Below, one piece after another: positions 3 through 10,136 of a stretch of DNA of 32,000 bases (position 1 is the first letter of the stretch; the number at the start of each line of letters is the position of its first letter). The notes beneath the pieces were generated by a model, which was not told the DNA's origin, searched no databases, and saw nothing but the letters and a program-made list of their open reading frames with translations. The position numbers and the translations under genes were made by a program. This DNA is from Patescibacteria group bacterium (GTDB lineage Bacteria; Patescibacteriota; Minisyncoccia; UBA6257; HR35), in contig JAUQQN010000002.1 of assembly GCA_030549845.1 (NCBI GenBank), positions 90,001 through 122,000 of the forward strand. The letters are read 5' to 3'.

Positions 3-1607
3 GCACAAGCGCCAAAAGATAATTATAACATGATAAATAACCCGTTAAAAAACGATGAGTGGAATCATATAATAGTTACTTGGAATTTTGAAAATAAAGA
101 GGTCATTTTCTATATCAATGGAGAAAAAAAGAAAAATGACGTTGAGAATGTTCCAAGATATTGGAAAGAAATGGCAAAAATAGGAAATTTGCAAATTGGA
201 GGAACTAATTTAGGAATTGAATCTGCATTTGTAGGGTATATAGATGGAGTGAGAATTTATAATAAAGCTTTAGATAGTAAAGAGGCAAAAATGGCTTATA
301 AATATAACAGAAGAAACATAAGATATCCAACAATTTCTTTTGGGGCAGAAGAGTTGATTTCGGTAGGGAAATTAAAGGATACGGTTTTTGACTCTTCAAT
401 TGTAGAAAATATCCCTATGACTGATAAAATTAAGATTGGTACTTGTTATGCCACACCACTTCACATAGGGTATAGCTATTATCCTAGCGAGGGAAAATAC
501 ATCAATCCTTCAACCAAAGAAGCTTTCTTTTTGATTCATAGATTAAAAGATGAAGATCTTCCTATTTTTGGTGTACCAAGTCACTTTTTCCCATATGAAG
601 GAGCATTTGTTAAATTTGAAGATGCCTTTTTATTATCTTACATAGGATTAGAAATCAATAACCCCAAATTAATTAAAGATTTAAAAATTGAATTTAAGAA
701 AGTAAAGAGTTATGAACCTGGAATAATTGAGCGTTGGGGGGAACTAATTCCTACTGCCTATGCGTGTGGTCCTTACTATAGTTATAAAACAGTTGGAGAT
801 TCGGAATTTTCTTTTATAGGAGAAAAAAATGGAATATATTGGTATAAATTGAAAAATCCAATTTTCGTTGACCAAGAAGTTACAATGATGCAACTTTATT
901 ACAAACCTACTGGCGAAGAAGGAATGCTTTCTATTAGGGTTAACGATATGGTTTTTATTGATAGAAATAAAAAGCTTGTTCGCCCTACTTTTTCTAAAGA
1001 TTCAAAAAAACCAATTGAGACAGAAGGAGCGGATTTTTTCTCAGAAATGTATGTTCTTCCTTACTGCCCTCCTGGTGAGAAATATTTTGAGAAATATTTA
1101 GCATATTTTGCTAAAGAAGAAAAAGGATTTATCATTTTTAAACAAAACCTCGATACACAAAAATTAGAGTTATCTTTTGAAAACCGCGGAAAAGACCAGA
1201 TTATTATTGACCATCAATCTATTTGGAATATTGAAACTCAATTAATAAAATGGAGGGTTAAAGATATCAAAATTCGAGATTTAAATGATAACATTATTTA
1301 TAAGCTCTCAATGGATGAAATCAAAAATCAGATATTTGGTAAGAAAATAGACCCAGGTGGAGCAATAAAAATACCTCTTATTTCTCTTAAAGATTTGCAA
1401 AAAAATACATTTTATCACATTACTATTGGTACGGGTGAAGAATCGAAACTTGAAGAAGTAACAAATCAAAAAAGAATTATCAAGTGGGTTCTCGGTGATT
1501 CACCTTACTATTATCCTCGATATCGTTTTAATAATGATCTTTATTTGTACCGTTTAAATGTGGCTCAAGATGGCTCTATCAGTTTCGAAGAAGTAAGGTC
1601 GAAATAA
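3..1607 (+). CDS. LamG/concanavalin-A-like (Laminin_G_3-type) domain surface protein, 5'-truncated by the window edge
   Basis: The frame is open from nt 3 (AQAPKDNYN precedes the first Met at 30), so the gene starts upstream. The N-terminal part 'DEWNHIIVTWNFENKEVIFYINGEKK...LQIGG...FVGYIDGVRIYNKALDSKEAKMAY' fits the C-terminal half of the LamG jelly-roll signature (W-h-h-V-T, F/Y-x-NG, G-x-IDxVRIYNxAL). The remaining ~430 aa have no motif I can name. Confidence 0.6.
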   Translation, partial: AQAPKDNYNMINNPLKNDEWNHIIVTWNFENKEVIFYINGEKKKNDVENVPRYWKEMAKIGNLQIGGTNLGIESAFVGYIDGVRIYNKALDSKEAKMAYKYNRRNIRYPTISFGAEELISVGKLKDTVFDSSIVENIPMTDKIKIGTCYATPLHIGYSYYPSEGKYINPSTKEAFFLIHRLKDEDLPIFGVPSHFFPYEGAFVKFEDAFLLSYIGLEINNPKLIKDLKIEFKKVKSYEPGIIERWGELIPTAYACGPYYSYKTVGDSEFSFIGEKNGIYWYKLKNPIFVDQEVTMMQLYYKPTGEEGMLSIRVNDMVFIDRNKKLVRPTFSKDSKKPIETEGADFFSEMYVLPYCPPGEKYFEKYLAYFAKEEKGFIIFKQNLDTQKLELSFENRGKDQIIIDHQSIWNIETQLIKWRVKDIKIRDLNDNIIYKLSMDEIKNQIFGKKIDPGGAIKIPLISLKDLQKNTFYHITIGTGEESKLEEVTNQKRIIKWVLGDSPYYYPRYRFNNDLYLYRLNVAQDGSISFEEVRSK

Positions 1608-1626
1608 ATCATAGAATATAGAATTA

Positions 1627-2760
1627 GTGATAATTAGATTAAAGAAAACATTAACCTTATTAATAATTAGTGGAGTTTTCTTTTTAGGTAGTTTATTTAT
1701 TATTGAACTGAAACTTTTAAATCGAGATAAATTCGCACACAACTATTCTTCTTTCATTCAAAACAAAACTATATTACAAGAGAAAAAGAAAATAACTCTT
1801 AGAGAAAAACTTGGACAAAATTTAGTAGTTGGAATTCCAGGCCCTACGCTCGATGAAAGAACAAAAGAAATTTTGCATTACATTAAACCAGCTGGAATTG
1901 TGTTATATCGTCGGAATTATAAATCCTATTCTCAACTTAAAGATTTAATTTCCCAGTTACAAAAAATTTCAAATGAAGATACTGGGCTTTTTTATTTCAT
2001 TATGTTAGATGAAGAACCAGACGGCGCAATGCGTCTCGGTTTACTTAAAAATGTCTTTCCTCTAGAAATACCTGACTGGAAAACTATTGAAAATGATATT
2101 AGAATTTTGGCAGATATAGGAATTAATGTTGAGCTAGCGCCTATCGCAGATTTTCCATTTAATAACGATGCATTTGTTAAAAGACGAGTTCCAGTAAAGA
2201 GTGTCGAAGACTTAATAGCATTTAATAGAACATTTATCAGCTTACTTAAAGAATATAGAATTTCAGCTACTTTAAAACATTTTCCCGGTATGGGAATTTT
2301 TATCGAAGATCCTCACGAAAAGATCCCTCATTCAAATATCCAACAAGAAGTTCTTAATAAATCGTTAAAGATTTTTAAAGATGGGATTGAGAATGGGGCT
2401 GATTTTGTTATGACAGGTCACGCAGTATATGAAAATATAGACCCTAATAACCCGGCAACATTTTCTTCTAAAATAGTAAGAGACCTTTTAATACATCAAC
2501 TCGGTTTTCAAGGAATTATTATTACCGATGATCTTTCAGATATGCCCCTGGCTATAAAAGGAATAAATCTTGCAGAGGCTGGTATTAGAGCGCTTAAGGC
2601 AGGTCATCATTTGATAATGTATTCACACAAATTAGAAAAAACAAAAGATATTTTTGATAAAATATATCGCCGCATAGAAAACGATTTTGAATTGCAATCA
2701 ATTATTGAGAGTAATTATCAGAAAATTATTGAATTTAAAAAATCTATCTTCTCATATTAA
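1627..2760 (+). CDS. Glycoside hydrolase family 3 N-terminal domain protein (beta-N-acetylhexosaminidase, NagZ-like) with an N-terminal membrane anchor or signal
   Basis: GTG start 19 nt after the previous stop. Hydrophobic N-terminus 'LTLLIISGVFFLGSLFII'. GH3 motifs 'KHFPGMG...DPH' and nucleophile region 'GIIITDDLSDM'. Confidence 0.75.
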   Translation: MIIRLKKTLTLLIISGVFFLGSLFIIELKLLNRDKFAHNYSSFIQNKTILQEKKKITLREKLGQNLVVGIPGPTLDERTKEILHYIKPAGIVLYRRNYKSYSQLKDLISQLQKISNEDTGLFYFIMLDEEPDGAMRLGLLKNVFPLEIPDWKTIENDIRILADIGINVELAPIADFPFNNDAFVKRRVPVKSVEDLIAFNRTFISLLKEYRISATLKHFPGMGIFIEDPHEKIPHSNIQQEVLNKSLKIFKDGIENGADFVMTGHAVYENIDPNNPATFSSKIVRDLLIHQLGFQGIIITDDLSDMPLAIKGINLAEAGIRALKAGHHLIMYSHKLEKTKDIFDKIYRRIENDFELQSIIESNYQKIIEFKKSIFSY

Positions 2761-3235
2761 AAGTTAGCGTAATAAAAATAAAAAACTTGTCATTGCAAAA
2801 CAACAAATCTGAAGATAGGTTTTCTCGAAAAAACACCATTTTAAAATGCTAAAGTCAATGACAATTCTTCTAAAACCCCAAGTTTCAGACGTAGGCTTAA
2901 TGCAGAGTCTCTGCCTCCGTTCTTGAAAATAAAATAAGGGCGAGGGAATTAGCTGGCTTTCAATCTTACATTAAGTTCGTTGGAAATTTGATAACAAACC
3001 CATTATTGCATTTTAGGTTAATTAAAGAAATTTGCGAACTCGAAAAAAGTAAGAATTTATCTGAATTTTAAAATTCTATGGTGCCAATAAGAAAGTTGTA
3101 ATTGCCATATCTATCAGTATACATACAATAGATTTACTCCCAGCATTTTTATTCTATTTTTCCATACAACTTCTCTAATAATTCTTTCACTTTTACATTT
3201 CATTACTTTTATCTCTAAATCCTGCCTTTATTCAA

Positions 3236-4009
3236 TTAAATATGAATGCCAAAGTAAATCAAAATATATTTCAATGAGACATAGAAAAACAAAAGACCAA
3301 ACAAGAATTTCAAGATATTTGGTTTGAATTTTGCTACGAGCTTTGCGCCATAAATTGCGCCGATTAAAGCGCCGATACCCAAAGCAATTGCTACTGGAAT
3401 ATCAACAACACCTTGAAAAAGTTTAAAGAAAGCACCCACCAAGGCCATCCAGACAAAAGCAGCCATTGAAGTACCAATTGCCAGCTTTACTGGTGCTTTC
3501 AAAAAATAGATGTAAGAAGGGACTAAAGCATAACCACCTCCAAGACCGATAATGCCAGTTAAAATGCCAATAGCTGAACCTAAAATTGTTTTTACTAGCG
3601 GCTTACCTGGAATTTCCACACCTTGCACAGTTTGGCTTTTAGTAAATAATCCTTCATAAAGCATTCGGACCGAAACGATGATAAAAGCAATACCAATAAT
3701 CAAGTCAATTAAATTACCGTAATGTTTAATATAACCAAAAACAATTGAACCAATAATTACACCCAAAATTCCTGCATAACCAGTTAAAAGTGCTGTTTCT
3801 TTATCAACATTTTTCATTTTAAAATGCTGATAAGCACCCGATGCGGCAGTAAAAACTACTGCCGTTAAAGTTGTACCAATAGCAACTGCTGGATCAAAAT
3901 GAAAAACAAAACGAATAACTGGCATTATTAAAGCACAACCTCCAGTACCTAAAAGCCCGCCGATAACTCCAGCCAAGAAACCGGTGATAAGATAAATTAA
4001 GTAAATCAT
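3236..4009 (-). CDS. TauE/SafE (DUF81) family anion exporter, polytopic membrane protein
   Basis: 257 aa, hydrophobic throughout. Has the duplicated Gly-rich helices typical of the family ('GVIGGLLGTGGCALIMP' and 'GIIGLGGGYALVP'). Confidence 0.8.
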   Translation of the reverse strand: MIYLIYLITGFLAGVIGGLLGTGGCALIMPVIRFVFHFDPAVAIGTTLTAVVFTAASGAYQHFKMKNVDKETALLTGYAGILGVIIGSIVFGYIKHYGNLIDLIIGIAFIIVSVRMLYEGLFTKSQTVQGVEIPGKPLVKTILGSAIGILTGIIGLGGGYALVPSYIYFLKAPVKLAIGTSMAAFVWMALVGAFFKLFQGVVDIPVAIALGIGALIGAIYGAKLVAKFKPNILKFLFGLLFFYVSLKYILIYFGIHI

Positions 4010-4169: not shown

Positions 4170-4832
4170 TTATAATAAACCTTTTTCTTTTAACCTTTTT
4201 AATAACCTTTCTAACCCCTCAACAATATATTCAACATGAAGAGCGCCGCAAGAAACTAAAATCTTAGCATTAGGATTTTCGCTTAATATGTTATTAATTT
4301 TCTCTACCGTAACTCTACTTCTTTCTGGTATCATAATTGTAGCTATTATTTCTGCTATTTGTTTCTCTCCTAAATTGAATTGCTTTAGATAATTCTTTAA
4401 ATAATCAACCATGTGTTTGTGTTTAAATAATATCCATTCTCGCATCTTTGCTCCACTCATATCACCAGCAATAACCCTTACTTTATTCTTCTTGGCTTCT
4501 TCTACTAACTTTTGATAATCGATAGAAAGTTTTTCAAGTTGAGAAATTTCTACTATTTTGTCCTGTACAAATTCATCAAGGGTTTGTTGCATATCTTCAG
4601 AAAGTTCTAAAATTAAATGAGTATACTGCCCACTTTGCAAAGCAACTATTAATTCAAAAACACGAGGTCGATCGTGAAATTCACCAAAAATATGCACATT
4701 ACCAATTTCAATGAACTCCTTAGAAATTTCTTCTAGGGTTTTTCCTTTTATTTCAATGAGTTTCTTAGAAATTTCTTCTAGAGAAATTCCTGCTAGAGTT
4801 TTTCCTTTTTTGCCTTCTCCAAATTCTTTCAT
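4170..4832 (-). CDS. Hypothetical protein, possibly ChaN/Tiki-superfamily (DUF399-like) fold
   Basis: 'VHIFGEFHDRP...THLILELSED' resembles the N-terminal GExHd / lElxxd motif of ChaN-like proteins. C-terminal 'ILVSCGALHV' resembles the GxxH motif. The N-terminus carries an internal duplication (GKTLAGISLEEISKKLIEI / GKTLEEISKEFIEI). Confidence 0.4.
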   Translation of the reverse strand: MKEFGEGKKGKTLAGISLEEISKKLIEIKGKTLEEISKEFIEIGNVHIFGEFHDRPRVFELIVALQSGQYTHLILELSEDMQQTLDEFVQDKIVEISQLEKLSIDYQKLVEEAKKNKVRVIAGDMSGAKMREWILFKHKHMVDYLKNYLKQFNLGEKQIAEIIATIMIPERSRVTVEKINNILSENPNAKILVSCGALHVEYIVEGLERLLKRLKEKGLL

Positions 4833-4967
4833 ATTTTAATTATTGTTTATTTTAATCATTTTTTGGTTTCGACCTTTATTATCTTTTATTTTTAGCAATT
4901 TTTCGATTTCACTCATAATAATCTAAATTATACCTCAATTTCTTATGCGCGGAGGCTAGGTAAAGAC

Positions 4968-4995
4968 TTGACAAATTTTGAAAATATGGTGTAAT
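4968..4995 (+). promoter_or_regulatory. Sigma70-like promoter for the GC-rich ORF
   Basis: TTGACA (4968-4973), 16-nt spacer, TGTAAT (4990-4995). Lies about 33 nt upstream of ATG 5028. Confidence 0.45.
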
Positions 4996-5027
4996 TTTAA
5001 ATGGTAAACTAAAAGGAGGTGTTTGGA

Positions 5028-5426
5028 ATGAAGATTATCAATTTGACCCCTCATCCCTGTGTCATCCTGCGGGAAGACCCGCAGGGGGACATCGAAGGTG
5101 TCGAAGGTGTAGGGAGTGAAGTTCGCCGCTACAGAAAAATCGCAGAATTGCCACCGTCCGGCAAGGTGGCACGCGCCAGTCAAAAGGAAGAAATTGCTGG
5201 TTTCATTTTGGTTAACGACGTGGAGGTCCCCGTAGTCAGAATGACTTACGGGGAACCCATCAATTTACCAGAGCCAAAAGAAGGAGTAGTTTATTTTGTC
5301 TCCCTCCTCACAGCCCAGGCTGCGGCGGCCACCGGACGCCGGACAGATGACTTAGTGTTTGCTGGGAAAACAGTTAGGAGTAAGGAGGGCTCAATAATCG
5401 GTATAACTTCCTTCGGTAAATTATGA
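5028..5426 (+). CDS. Hypothetical protein (132 aa), compositionally foreign (~53% GC)
   Basis: GGAGGT at 5015-5020 lies 7 nt before ATG 5028, so the track's GTG at 5019 is probably too early. A 132-codon open frame in ~50% GC DNA is unlikely by chance. GC-ending codons are used throughout. A strong terminator follows. I cannot assign a family; the N-terminus is 'MKIINLTPHPCVIL'. Confidence 0.7.
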   Translation: MKIINLTPHPCVILREDPQGDIEGVEGVGSEVRRYRKIAELPPSGKVARASQKEEIAGFILVNDVEVPVVRMTYGEPINLPEPKEGVVYFVSLLTAQAAAATGRRTDDLVFAGKTVRSKEGSIIGITSFGKL

Positions 5427-5449
5427 TGATGAGAAGTTGCAGGTTTCAA

Positions 5450-5478
5450 GGGAGCCTAAGAAAGGGCTCCCATTTTTT
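5450..5478 (+). terminator. Rho-independent terminator
   Basis: GGGAGCC (5450-5456), loop TAAGAAAG, GGCTCCC (5465-5471), then A + TTTTTT (5473-5478). Starts 24 nt after the stop codon. Confidence 0.75.
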
Positions 5479-5738
5479 CAGTCAAAAAAGAGTATTCGGT
5501 TCTCTTTTTCATGTTTTAGGTTGAAAATAGAATAAGAATTTTAGGTTATTAAGTTCAAATAAAAATAGCCAATTGAAAAACTATAATTTGCGATAGATGT
5601 CTTTACCTTTTTGATGTGGAGCCAACAACCTCAAGAATTAGCCTTAAATTGTGATTCTTAAATTAAATTAGATAAATTGTGCTATAACTGATTGATTATC
5701 AATTAATAGAACTGACTTTTAATTTCTCAGCCTCTTTG

Positions 5739-5810
5739 CTCCGGGGGCAGGATTCGAACCTGCGACATCCTGGTTAACAGCCAGGCGTTCTACCGCTGAA
5801 CTACCCCGGA
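5739..5810 (-). tRNA. tRNA-Asn (anticodon GTT), CCA not encoded
   Basis: The reverse complement folds as a cloverleaf: TCCGGGG/CCCCGGA acceptor stem, CCTGG-CTGTTAA-CCAGG anticodon arm, GCAGG-TTCGAAT-CCTGC T arm, discriminator G. Confidence 0.95.
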
Positions 5811-8618: not shown

Positions 8619-10136
8619 TTATGGTAAATTATAAAGCTTATTATATTTATTCTTGATATAAGATAAAAATGGTTCAGCAGAAAACTCTTTACCGCATATC
8701 TTTGAAATCAAATCCTTTGAAGGATAAGTTTTGCCATATTTGTGGATTTTTTCTTTTAACCAATTTTGAATTCTGAGTATACCATTTTCTTCTTTTAACA
8801 ATTCTTCTATTACCCCTAATTCATTTTGCAAAGCTTCTAACCACATTCCTGATAAAAATGTACCGAGAGAATAAGTTGGAAAATACCCTATTGCCCCCAT
8901 TGACCAATGAATATCTTGTAAAACCCCTTCTTTATCATTATCAACATCCACATCCAAATACTCTTTCATTTTTGCTCGCCAAATTTCTGGTAATTCATTA
9001 ACCTTAATTTTTTCTTCCAATAGCCCTTTTTCTAATTCAAATCTCAAAATAATATGAAAGTGATAAGTAACTTCATCTGCTTCAACTCTTATTTTTTCTG
9101 GTCTTACAATATTGAAATATAAAACAAAATCTTCAAATGAATATTTCTTTAAAAATAATAAAAATTCTTTTGCTTTTTCAAAAATTTTTGCTAAAAATAT
9201 TGGATTTCTTCCAATAATATTTTCCCAAAACCTTGATTGAGATTCATGAAAGGCATAAGATAGACCTCCTTGCAAAGGTGTAAATTTCAGTTCTGGATCA
9301 ACTTGAAGCTCATATAAAGAATGTCCAAATTCATGAATTGTTGCTGTTAAACTTCTACGAAAATCTTTTGGGTGATACCAGGTGGTTATTCGAACATCAT
9401 TTAAGGAAATAGCAGTTTCAAAGGGGTGAGGAGCAATATCCAATCGAGAGCGAGCAGGATTGAAATTTAGTAGACTTAATACATAATAATTCAATTTTTC
9501 CATTTGTTCTTTCTCATATTTCTCCTCTTCTAAAGGATGTTTTTCTTTATAAAATGGTGAGTTTCTTATTTGATTAAATAAATCTTTTAATGGTTTCTTT
9601 ATAACTTCAAAAAAGTTTTCAAAGTCCTTGGTTGTCCAACCTTCTTCAAATAAATCTATTAAAGCATCATATGGGTGTTCTTCATATCCTAAATATTCTG
9701 CTTTTTTCTTTATTAACTCAACAATTTTCTCCAAATGAGGTTTAAATTTTTCGAAATTGTTTTCTTTTTTAGCATTTCGCCAAATAATTTGAGCTTCGTT
9801 TGTTACTTTATTAAATTTTTCAATAAATTCATTTGGTAATTTTTCAATGATATTAATTTCTCTTTCCAAAACCCTTACTACACCTTTTTCATAATCATTT
9901 AACTTTTCTAAATTTTCTTTTGCTTTTTCTAATAACTTTTTCAATTTTTTATCTAAAATCAAGTTTTTAATAAGCAGATTAACCTTACCCAAAACAAACC
10001 CCCTGTCTTCCGCCGAGCTCTCTGGCATATAGGTATTTAAATCCCAATCAGCCAAAGATATCAAGCTTTCTAAAGAGCTTATATAATAATATTTGTTTAA
10101 AATATTTTTAATAATTTTATTTTGGAATTTCATCAA
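8619..10136 (-). CDS. Carboxypeptidase Taq-type metallopeptidase (family M32)
   Basis: 'HEFGHSLY' (HExxH), 'HESQSRFWEN' and 'DIHWSMGAIGYFPTYSLG' are the hallmark M32 motifs. Length is 505 aa. Confidence 0.9.
   Translation of the reverse strand: MMKFQNKIIKNILNKYYYISSLESLISLADWDLNTYMPESSAEDRGFVLGKVNLLIKNLILDKKLKKLLEKAKENLEKLNDYEKGVVRVLEREINIIEKLPNEFIEKFNKVTNEAQIIWRNAKKENNFEKFKPHLEKIVELIKKKAEYLGYEEHPYDALIDLFEEGWTTKDFENFFEVIKKPLKDLFNQIRNSPFYKEKHPLEEEKYEKEQMEKLNYYVLSLLNFNPARSRLDIAPHPFETAISLNDVRITTWYHPKDFRRSLTATIHEFGHSLYELQVDPELKFTPLQGGLSYAFHESQSRFWENIIGRNPIFLAKIFEKAKEFLLFLKKYSFEDFVLYFNIVRPEKIRVEADEVTYHFHIILRFELEKGLLEEKIKVNELPEIWRAKMKEYLDVDVDNDKEGVLQDIHWSMGAIGYFPTYSLGTFLSGMWLEALQNELGVIEELLKEENGILRIQNWLKEKIHKYGKTYPSKDLISKICGKEFSAEPFLSYIKNKYNKLYNLP

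Follow-up and report, generated by a model that had tools for sequence, protein, structure and literature searches.

Crn4 is a ring nuclease family that was described in late 2025 from 22 CRISPR-linked genes and a few phage and plasmid copies, and that had been called Unk01 until it was renamed by Chi et al. (Nat Commun 2025; PMC12830947). Its members form homodimers with a previously unseen fold and, in the presence of EDTA, cut the cyclic oligoadenylates (cOAs) cA3, cA4 and cA6 (cA3 and cA4 in Crn4b) to A(n)>P; in Crn4a, H15 and R112, which come from different subunits, are essential, T13 is conserved, the contacts with cA6 are mostly main-chain, and poly(A) is cut weakly (PMC12830947). Some members have no recognizable effector nearby, and relatives of Crn4b, found on phages and plasmids, have been proposed to be anti-CRISPR proteins (Acrs; PMC12830947). 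Crn4 is able to degrade cA3, triggering or disarming other systems (PMC13577387). Here we analyse a stretch of 32,000 nucleotides from a Patescibacteria group bacterium (assembly GCA_030549845.1, contig JAUQQN010000002.1, positions 90,001 to 122,000, forward strand; hereafter 'the window'), in which a solitary GC-rich segment at 4968–5478 encodes a Crn4-family protein of 132 residues. Taken as a whole, the locus is probably best explained as a Crn4-family cassette that circulates horizontally and owes its GC-richness to selection on RNA structure.

A Crn4-family protein in an AT-rich genome

An earlier note on this DNA had been unable to assign the protein to any named family, and Pfam gives no match for the 132-residue open reading frame (ORF). 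Matches were obtained to phrog_30542 (3e-15) and phrog_21731 (3e-14) in PHROGs, PADLOC called the protein Unk_01 (PDLC01138; 2.8e-15), and a search of 5.8 billion proteins recovered 28 homologues. A profile built on 25 of these, on which residue conservation was also assessed, matched three Crn4 structures in the PDB, namely Crn4b (9r7b; E = 1.3e-18), Crn4a (9sma; 1.2e-8) and Crn4 H15A (9qs9; 4.2e-7), and nothing else of note. The single sequence also matches Crn4 (E = 5e-4): in the alignment to Crn4b, iiNLTPHp is paired with LINLTPHD and tVRskeGsIIG with eVRDATGRIIG, while tVRskeG also aligns to lIRDadG of Crn4a. An exhaustive HMMER search put the size of the superfamily at 9,020 clusters at 50% identity (E ≤ 1e-3).

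The AlphaFold (AF2) model of the monomer (predicted local distance difference test score, pLDDT, 96.3; predicted template modelling score, pTM, 0.85) consists of ten strands, one helix (residues 93–101) and a long hairpin (49–62/65–78), the counterpart of the β-hairpin arm that in Crn4 homodimers wraps the partner and encloses the ligand. When it was compared with the PDB using Foldseek, all seven matches at E ≤ 1e-3 were Crn4 chains (E 4e-8 to 1e-4; template modelling (TM) score 0.58–0.76), and the first match outside the family had an E value of 1.8. T7 and H9 of the NLTPH motif and R117 are invariant in 25/25 aligned homologues, and are equivalent to T13, H15 and R112 of Crn4a (H17 and R103 in Crn4b). 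Thus, by sequence profile, fold and catalytic residues, the window protein belongs to the Crn4 family, formerly Unk01. The family itself is known; what is new is a distinct Crn4 clade with intact catalytic residues, present as an orphan gene in AT-rich genomes.

Three points weigh against extending this assignment to function: the adenine-stacking R92 of Crn4a is Leu or Val in the window clade, the β-hairpin loop is longer than in Crn4b, and no Cas10, CARF/SAVED effector, CD-NTase or CRISPR array was found in the 32 kb and a further 3.4 kb of adjoining sequence. Of the pair that contacts cOA, S91/R92 in Crn4a and structurally conserved in Crn4b, at least 90% of sequences retain the Ser (S92), and the Arg has become Leu, Val or Ile (S92-L93; VSLL, VSVL). 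As the Ser–Arg pair is not among the family-defining residues of PMC12830947, its absence is a subfamily difference and does not exclude the protein from Crn4. The window protein also carries an AAATGRRT insertion after the helix.

By homology, the protein would form a homodimer enclosing a cOA (cA3, cA4 or cA6) and would cut the ring, without metal, to linear A(n)>P products, with H9 of the N-terminal NLTPH motif acting as general acid and R117 from the other subunit holding the phosphate; both ring-nuclease activity and substrate are predicted. Since the gene is solitary, with no CRISPR–Cas or cOA gene in 32 kb, the enzyme would either clear signals of a system located elsewhere in the genome or be a constitutive signal-clearing or anti-defence enzyme.

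A stand-alone cassette of foreign composition

The host sequence has about 28% GC and is poor in Shine–Dalgarno (SD) sites. The earlier note had described a GC-rich segment with abrupt edges holding a single ORF of foreign composition, and both descriptions hold: GC is 49–51% inside and 25% on either side. In detail, 200-nt windows within 5000–5499 have a GC fraction of 0.485–0.51, versus 0.25 for 4800–4999 and 0.255 for 5500–5699, and the segment 5001–5500 has 0.486, the remaining 63 of 64 500-nt windows lying between 0.188 and 0.374. GC at the first, second and third codon positions (GC1/2/3) of the coding sequence (CDS) is 0.58/0.43/0.51, compared with means of 0.38/0.29/0.18 in the 24 host ORFs, in which GC3 has a standard deviation of 0.024 and a maximum of 0.26; the cassette is thus about 14 standard deviations away at GC3.

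The canonical promoter, SD sequence and hairpin–T6 terminator reported in that note are likewise all present (Table 1). The −10 element reads TATAAT in the sister strain L012 (homologous loci are numbered with the prefix L), and a near-identical consensus promoter occurs in L003; the promoter scan did not list the cassette promoter because its rule demands A at −10 position 2. In all 24 host ORFs, including those for S12, S7 and EF-G, the SD match is 4/6 or less. In the homologous loci, GGAGG is retained in every case, even where adjacent bases change, a perfect SD and an ATG are found everywhere, and GC hairpins followed by T-runs, comparable to the terminator of the window, lie 3′ of the gene in L003, L005 and L007. 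Both cassette junctions are spanned by two independent short-read assemblies from other runs (L001 and L012), which excludes an assembly chimera. The segment is a stand-alone monocistronic expression cassette, with a composition and translation signals foreign to the genome. The 9-bp perfect tandem duplication noted earlier within the CDS can be read in the sequence as claimed.

RNA structure of the coding sequence

The strong hairpins that had been noted in the CDS are also present, and two of them, at 5066–5085 and 5228–5253, are among the conserved helices described below. The RNA of 5000–5480 folds with a z score of −4.21 against 100 dinucleotide shuffles. For the CDS the z score is −4.0, and 0/400 synonymous-codon shuffles, in which protein and codon usage are kept, are as stable; the excess in minimum free energy (MFE) over synonymous shuffles is 19% in the window and up to 30–48% in sister islands. 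In a 300-nt scan of the 32 kb, 5101–5400 is the most structured segment (z = −4.29), level with the segment containing tRNA-Asn.

The same property was found throughout the clade. Synonymous-shuffle z scores range from −3.5 to −9.4 in 10/10 clade copies, versus −0.14 ± 1.11 in 52 control segments (Mann–Whitney p = 4e-7), these being host genes of the window, host genes of intermediate GC from sister loci, and high-GC genes; ordinary high-GC genes alone give −0.7 ± 1.2. RNAalifold applied to the ten CDSs yields 78 consensus pairs in 15 helices, with 87.6% of cells paired, compared with 38–48% when the partners are slid. Both sides have changed in 23 pairs, versus 12.6 ± 2.1 in shuffles, and 0/500 shuffles reach 23. 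Third-codon positions in paired columns vary less than others (0.45 versus 0.62) and are more GC-rich in 9/10 sequences. The hairpin at 5064–5087 includes a perfect 8-bp stem (5066–5073/5078–5085) that can be extended to 14-nt arms, and in L008 its stem reads CCUCCGGG/CCCGGAGG; that at 5227–5254 is a 12-bp stem with one bulge. Helix 8 is 84% paired with two pairs changed on both sides, helix 9 comprises 11 pairs with 92.7% of cells paired across the ten sequences, helix 12 has 4/8 pairs changed on both sides, and helices 13 and 14 are 92% paired.

Several points count against selection on this structure. The doubly changed pairs were counted on the same alignment that yielded the consensus structure, which inflates their support; the covariation term of RNAalifold is slightly unfavourable (+0.88); much of the stability of each copy is not positionally conserved, the copies having more structure than the consensus; and sense and antisense of the window copy fold about equally well. 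Because the copies are more structured than the consensus, selection seems to have acted on hairpin density as much as on one particular architecture. A pairing of the SD with CUUCCUU (5407–5414), seen in the MFE fold, was dropped, as it is not conserved in L012. In Rfam 15, only three tRNAs of the window reach the gathering score, and the best E values in 4800–5750 are 5–9, far below it.

With these points weighed, we favour the reading that the transcript has been selected for stability or nuclease resistance, with GC-richness as the means and not a relic of a donor; the high GC content would then result from selection on RNA structure acting against AT-biased mutation pressure. Analogies are the ordered genome-scale RNA structure of RNA viruses and the GC-rich tRNA and rRNA genes of AT-rich genomes.

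Elsewhere in the window, the second most structured non-tRNA segment of 300 nt is 9601–9900 (z = −4.17; 26% GC), in the 5′ part of a gene for an M32 carboxypeptidase (8619–10136, minus strand).

GC excess and horizontal circulation

The gene was recovered in ten independent loci, with different neighbours in each and no conserved synteny. In all ten, its GC content exceeds that of the rest of the locus by 14–31 points, on backgrounds of 26–55% GC (Table 1), and the GC steps at the edges of gene or island are sharp in the locus profiles. The GC excess is thus a property of the clade.

In L012, which comes from another sample, the order TauE/ChaN-like/cassette is the same and the cassette gene has 52.5% GC. 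The two proteins are 84% identical, with a synonymous divergence (dS) of 0.66, a nonsynonymous divergence (dN) of 0.074 and a dN/dS of 0.11; in all other pairs synonymous changes have reached saturation and dN is 0.17–0.6. By these codon-level measures, the gene is translated and under purifying selection. Synonymous divergence in the gene (0.66) is 20–30 times that of the flanking non-coding DNA, whereas on our own estimate a 3–6-fold AT bias would make a GC-rich stretch evolve only about 2.5 times faster than its flanks; in situ AT-biased decay was accordingly rejected as the source of the 15–20% divergence from L012. Given this excess, the likeliest event is that the coding block was swapped for a divergent allele by homologous recombination. 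The gene pool is older than these strains and circulates among them, and the lack of conserved synteny, together with a divergent allele inside near-identical flanks, places the cassette in a horizontally circulating gene pool.

The earlier note had taken the segment for a recently acquired stand-alone gene of unknown function, perhaps from a host of higher GC. That it stands alone and has been mobile over evolution is borne out, and its function is no longer without a candidate; recent import from a high-GC source was not established, the GC excess being found in all ten genomes. Plain recent transfer from a high-GC organism or element, with GC content, codon usage and SD as decaying relics of the donor, is in our view possible but rather unlikely. 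It would account for a GC3 of 0.51 against 0.18 ± 0.02 in host genes, for the sole SD in the window, for the absence of synteny between loci, for the GC3 of 0.74–0.91 in sister copies and for the travelling of the gene with AAA-Csx3 in a GC-rich island of 2–7 kb in L002, L005 and L016. It would also fit, as would selection on RNA structure opposed by AT-biased mutation, the derived changes in the two alleles from AT-rich hosts, which are mostly GC to AT (26 versus 6 and 15 versus 2), although the GC-rich outgroups bias this polarization towards GC as the ancestral state, a caution that applies to the preferred account as well. However, the offset of +14 to +31 points persists in ten genomes although the copies differ by dS of 0.5 to saturation, so that a single recent import is insufficient. 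Moreover, a scan of 185,579 species genomes found the clade in none of high GC and only in a 'Candidatus Saccharimonas' metagenome-assembled genome (MAG) and in a bacterial MAG without classification; the closely related L012 carries the gene, GC-rich and under purifying selection, at the corresponding position, which is the finding that the earlier note had itself named as refuting recent transfer; the SD is kept in all three AT-ameliorated copies; and donor relics leave unexplained the z scores of −4 to −9 relative to shuffles with codon usage preserved, which ordinary high-GC genes do not display.

An AAA-Csx3 gene lies 3′ of the homologue in L002, L005 and L016. The three proteins are 85–88% identical to each other (PADLOC C3a67 'AAA-Csx3'; 1e-49 to 1e-51), and this type III CRISPR accessory family provides the only connection to the pathway among neighbouring genes. 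The small ORFs of 67 and 84 residues that precede homologues are mutually unrelated, and no Aca-like partner was found among them. A gene for a TrmB-family regulator lies divergently upstream in three loci (L008 4191–5093, L010 2779–3612 and L011 6513–7391; 23–52% identity), and may be a linked regulator or reflect synteny of the lineage. In L018 (4995–5420, on a 1.18-Mb contig), a 45%-identical homologue keeps NLTPH and has VTKDG in place of VR..G; this copy is possibly inactive or repurposed.

Structured islands beyond the gene

In L005 (5201–12000), L002 (5201–8000) and L011 (7601–10000), every 300-nt window, intergenic ones included, has a z score of −2 to −13 relative to dinucleotide shuffles. 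The ends of these islands are sharp and coincide with the GC step, and the islands contain the crn4-like gene, AAA-Csx3, MoxR, VWA and unknown genes. Neighbouring island genes (AAA-Csx3, MoxR, VWA and unknowns of L008, L009 and L011) have z scores of −3.8 to −14.7, versus about 0 for ordinary genes of the same loci. In these neighbours the sense strand is 12–19% more stable than the antisense, with 2–4 times more G·U pairs, which points to sense RNA rather than DNA; the Crn4-like CDSs of 400 nt show little or none of this asymmetry. Rfam found only rRNA and tRNA in the sister islands.

Distant metagenomic members of Crn4 lean towards hyper-structure (p = 1e-5), and five homologues from cultured phages do not differ from their neighbours (z −0.1 to −2.6). 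Hyper-structure as a trait of all Crn4 genes was rejected, since the phage copies are not outstanding; it follows certain GC-rich islands and not the Crn4 family as such. On the Geobacillus subterraneus plasmid pGspE55-1 (119358–120016; L037 2501–3159), the Crn4 homologue and a downstream gene of 93 residues have z scores of −5.7 and −7.4 and GC fractions of 0.57 and 0.52, versus about 0.45 around them, and their neighbours lack the structure excess. The same GC-rich, structured signature is thus seen outside the candidate phyla radiation (CPR), in a thermophile.

Repeats were observed at several island positions. The 2.4-kb structured island of L011, from a Saccharimonas MAG, is bracketed by a 17-nt inverted repeat (7529–7545/9946–9962; 16/17 complementary), which could mark where a mobile unit begins and ends. 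In L002 and L005, a long inverted repeat with 37-nt arms is conserved about 60–150 nt 5′ of the crn4-like ATG, and in both islands a roughly 20-bp hairpin (…TTTCTGGGTTGAGAAAGGAG), also conserved, is repeated where gene modules end (these repeats lie at L005 5849–5945, 7940–7985 and 11957–12020, and at L002 7815–7857).

L002 also contains, at 658–3260, a 16S rRNA gene of 2.6 kb that is interrupted by an ORF for a LAGLIDADG homing endonuclease (1723–2475). Such interrupted 16S genes are typical of CPR lineages. Along with the 28% GC and lack of SD usage in the window, and the relatives of the cassette in a 'Candidatus Saccharimonas' MAG, this gene suggests that the window comes from the Patescibacteria/CPR.

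Alternative functions and origins

The gene could instead serve anti-defence in the manner of an Acr, as a phage or plasmid remnant or as a weapon of an episymbiotic CPR cell, clearing cA3, cA4 or cA6 of type III CRISPR, cyclic oligonucleotide-based antiphage signalling (CBASS) or Panoptes-type systems and not resetting a CRISPR system of its own. The mobile homologues of Crn4b and the effect of Crn4 on other systems through cA3, both cited above, argue for this role, as do the matches to two PHROGs and to 12 phage and 6 plasmid records at 30–35% identity (Bacillus, Paenibacillus and Cylindrospermopsis phages, an archaeal virus, and Geobacillus and Alicyclobacillus plasmids), the constitutive, near-consensus promoter and the absence of a cognate signalling system nearby. 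Against it, the cassette lies among housekeeping genes, Pfam, PADLOC and repeat scans of the window revealed zero cas, cyclase, integrase, transposase or phage genes (and no plasmid gene was seen), viral contigs hold distant relatives only (27–35% identity), and the same locus is occupied in the sister strain. We regard such a role as unlikely.

A Crn4-fold protein whose job has changed, to that of a binder or sponge or of a nuclease for linear oligo(A), poly(A) tails or other cyclic nucleotides, would be in keeping with the replaced adenine-stacking Arg, the remodelled hairpin loop, the lack of a cOA context (the window shows no association with type III CRISPR or with cOA effectors such as Csm6-2, CorA, Can2 and TIR-SAVED), the weak cleavage of poly(A) by Crn4a itself, and the huge superfamily, most of whose 9,020 clusters are surely not linked to CRISPR. 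Yet none of 25 sequences departs from the catalytic His and Arg, and the recurrent neighbour is a type III CRISPR accessory; and, as most contacts between Crn4a and cA6 involve the main chain, one lost side chain is weak evidence. A changed job thus seems distinctly unlikely.

The earlier note correctly placed tRNA-Asn about 260 nt from the cassette, with its 3′ end facing it and no integrase or mobile gene in the window, and had raised tRNA 3′ ends as integration targets. A genomic islet integrated site-specifically at this 3′ end is very improbable: apart from the missing integrase, no duplicated tRNA 3′ segment is found at the distal border, the best direct repeat being one of 13 nt with one mismatch, the other copy of which falls within the neighbouring gene and 500 nt away from the edge of the island; the intervening 260 nt are AT-rich like host DNA and 97–100% identical to L012; and in the eight other loci scanned, the gene has no tRNA closer than about 3.9 kb. 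With no att-like repeat, no integrase and no tRNA near the gene in those eight loci, the adjacency is probably coincidental, and a tRNA-targeted integrative island was rejected. An empty-site search found no uninterrupted locus, because the ChaN-like left neighbour has a homologue only in L012.

That the cassette is a structured non-coding RNA gene with a fortuitous ORF is exceedingly improbable, and as an exclusive reading is refuted at the protein level, since the fold z score of −4.2, the conserved, covarying helices and a GC-richness like that of the tRNA genes of this genome are set against a dN/dS of 0.11 at a dS of 0.66, 28 protein homologues and 9,020 related clusters, a Crn4 fold modelled at a pLDDT of 96, a perfect SD and ATG conserved in all loci, and the absence of Rfam matches at E values as high as 10; of the structured RNA that the earlier note had offered as an alternative, the structure stands and the alternative does not, RNA and protein both being conserved.

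Features of the locus

Besides the cassette, the window encodes ordinary bacterial housekeeping functions, with an S12–S7–EF-G operon and genes for PilB/PilC, pilin-like proteins, a P-type ATPase, RNase J, an Asp/Asn-type tRNA synthetase, TGT and CTP synthase. Immediately upstream of the cassette lies the ChaN-like gene (4170–4832, minus strand), for which the search of 5.8 billion proteins gave a homologue in the sister strain only; its 5′ end contains about two copies of a 45-nt (15-codon) tandem repeat at 4705–4806, 83% identical and with an inner period of 15 nt.

Table 1 Features of the cassette and its surroundings (positions in the window), and GC content of the gene and of the rest of its locus in the window and in homologous loci
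Feature	Position	Strand	Remarks
σ70-type promoter: TTGACA (4968–4973), 16-nt spacer, TG-n-TGTAAT (4990–4995, extended −10)	4968–4995	+	Read directly; 98–100% conserved with L012
Shine–Dalgarno AGGAGGT	5014–5020	+	7 nt 5′ of ATG; sole 6/6 AGGAGG among 25 ORF starts
Probable allelic replacement block	5014–5445	+	78–87% identical to L012; flanks, including promoter and terminator, 97–100% identical
CDS, 132 residues, Crn4/Unk01-family ring nuclease homologue	5028–5426 (ATG 5028 to stop 5426)	+	Putative catalytic T7, H9, R117
Conserved hairpin, stem CCUGCGGG/CCCGCAGG, AAGA loop	5064–5087 (alignment A6, columns 37–60)	+	4/8 pairs changed on both sides
Tandem duplication, TCGAAGGTG twice (protein IEGVEGV)	5092–5109	+	Variable β-hairpin loop; absent in L012; block pLDDT 88, the lowest model confidence
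Two adjoining conserved hairpins	5202–5224 (A6 columns 184–206) and 5227–5254 (columns 209–236)	+	Hairpin at 5227–5254 is the best-conserved helix
Further conserved local helices (A6 columns 267–288, 296–307, 310–324)	5282–5339	+	
Intrinsic terminator: GGGAGCC(U)/(G)GGCUCCC stem (5450–5471), then T6	5450–5478	+	Conserved in L012, one loop change
tRNA-Asn(GTT)	5738–5810	−	About 260 nt from cassette, 3′ end facing cassette
Window			Gene GC 50.6%, rest of locus 28.3%
L003			Gene GC 49%, rest of locus 26.5%
L002			Gene GC 66%, rest of locus 37%
L005			Gene GC 68%, rest of locus 45%
L007			Gene GC 66%, rest of locus 36%
L008			Gene GC 69%, rest of locus 54%
L016			Gene GC 65%, rest of locus 51%
L010			Gene GC 71%, rest of locus 47%
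L011			Gene GC 70%, rest of locus 49%

Possible roles of a structured transcript

The occurrence of a solitary clade gene with strong expression signals in tiny, AT-rich genomes, probably of the CPR/Patescibacteria type and in available sequence devoid of CRISPR or cOA machinery, raises the question of what role cOA signalling, or its suppression, has there. The RNA-structure signal of the gene and its island neighbours is among the strongest measured here for coding sequences: the MFE lies 19–48% beyond synonymous shuffles, and the signal is kept across saturated divergence and is coupled to a local GC rise of 15–30 points. If this structure is selected, compositional islands in AT-rich genomes are not automatically evidence of recent transfer, and there would be a testable link between mRNA architecture and survival of immunity that acts through collateral RNases.

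One tentative and rather doubtful form of this link is that cOA off-switch genes (Crn4-like and AAA-Csx3) are carried on largely double-stranded, long-lived, SD-dependent mRNAs, that is, on RNase-proof transcripts whose synthesis and translation would continue while cOA-activated collateral RNases or other single-strand-specific RNases or toxins destroy AU-rich messages. If true, this would define a new class of RNase-proof immune-regulator transcripts, in islands of 0.5–7 kb that include intergenic RNA and are sense-specific through G·U pairs. We know of no description of such mRNA structure for defence genes, and nothing relevant emerged from literature searches that combined CPR with cOA or structured mRNA with collateral RNases.

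As a remoter variant, the cassettes may be tuned for ribosomes other than those of the resident. The 3′ end of the resident 16S rRNA of L002 (GGAUCAUUUCAUUUU/GGATCATTTCATTTT; L002 3180–3260) is without a CCUCC/CCTCC anti-SD, and the GC-island genes of L002 nevertheless carry canonical GGAGG sites.

Comparison with known systems

RNA-virus genomes and tRNA and rRNA genes share with the cassette a folding beyond that of composition-matched shuffles and a local GC rise that accompanies structure. By contrast, the structured RNA here is the bacterial mRNA of an immune-signalling gene, and its protein is conserved too.

Among ring nucleases, the best match by both sequence and structure is Crn4b (PDB 9r7b; Hyphomicrobiales MBK8772583; PMC12830947), with a profile E value of 1.3e-18 and a structural E value of 4e-8 (TM 0.67/0.76; 30% identity). 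The two proteins have in common a small all-β fold with one helix and a long β-hairpin, and the NLTPH and VR..G..IG motifs with the catalytic His and Arg; they are of similar size (132 residues in the window, about 115–128 in Crn4b), and occurrence outside CRISPR loci is also known for the phage- and plasmid-borne relatives of Crn4b. However, the window protein has a loop 15–20 residues longer between strands 2 and 3, in addition to the AAATGRRT insert, and the Ser–Arg pair that contacts cOA is Ser–Leu or Ser–Val in its clade. Its gene, moreover, does not adjoin Can2 or a CRISPR locus and lies in an AT-rich host, probably a CPR bacterium, in a GC-rich, hyper-structured cassette.

Crn4a (Actinomyces procaprae WP_136192672; PDB 9sma and 9qs9) is the biochemically characterized reference, which without metal converts cA3, cA4 and cA6 to A(n)>P and relieves type III immunity in vivo. 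Its fold and T/H/R triad are common to the window protein, although the similarity is lower than to Crn4b (profile E = 1.2e-8; TM about 0.6; 23% identity), and it is encoded in type III-D loci next to Csm6-2/CorA or as a fusion with effectors, whereas the window gene is solitary.

The job proposed for the window protein is that of Crn1, Crn2, Crn3/Csx3, Csx15 and the viral AcrIII-1, which degrade cOA and thereby switch off or evade type III CRISPR effectors, and AcrIII-1 likewise has an essential His as general acid. The folds of these proteins are unrelated (Rossmann-like, CARF or DUF1874), that of Crn4 being distinct; a Csx3-domain protein, AAA-Csx3, is the recurrent neighbour of the window clade.

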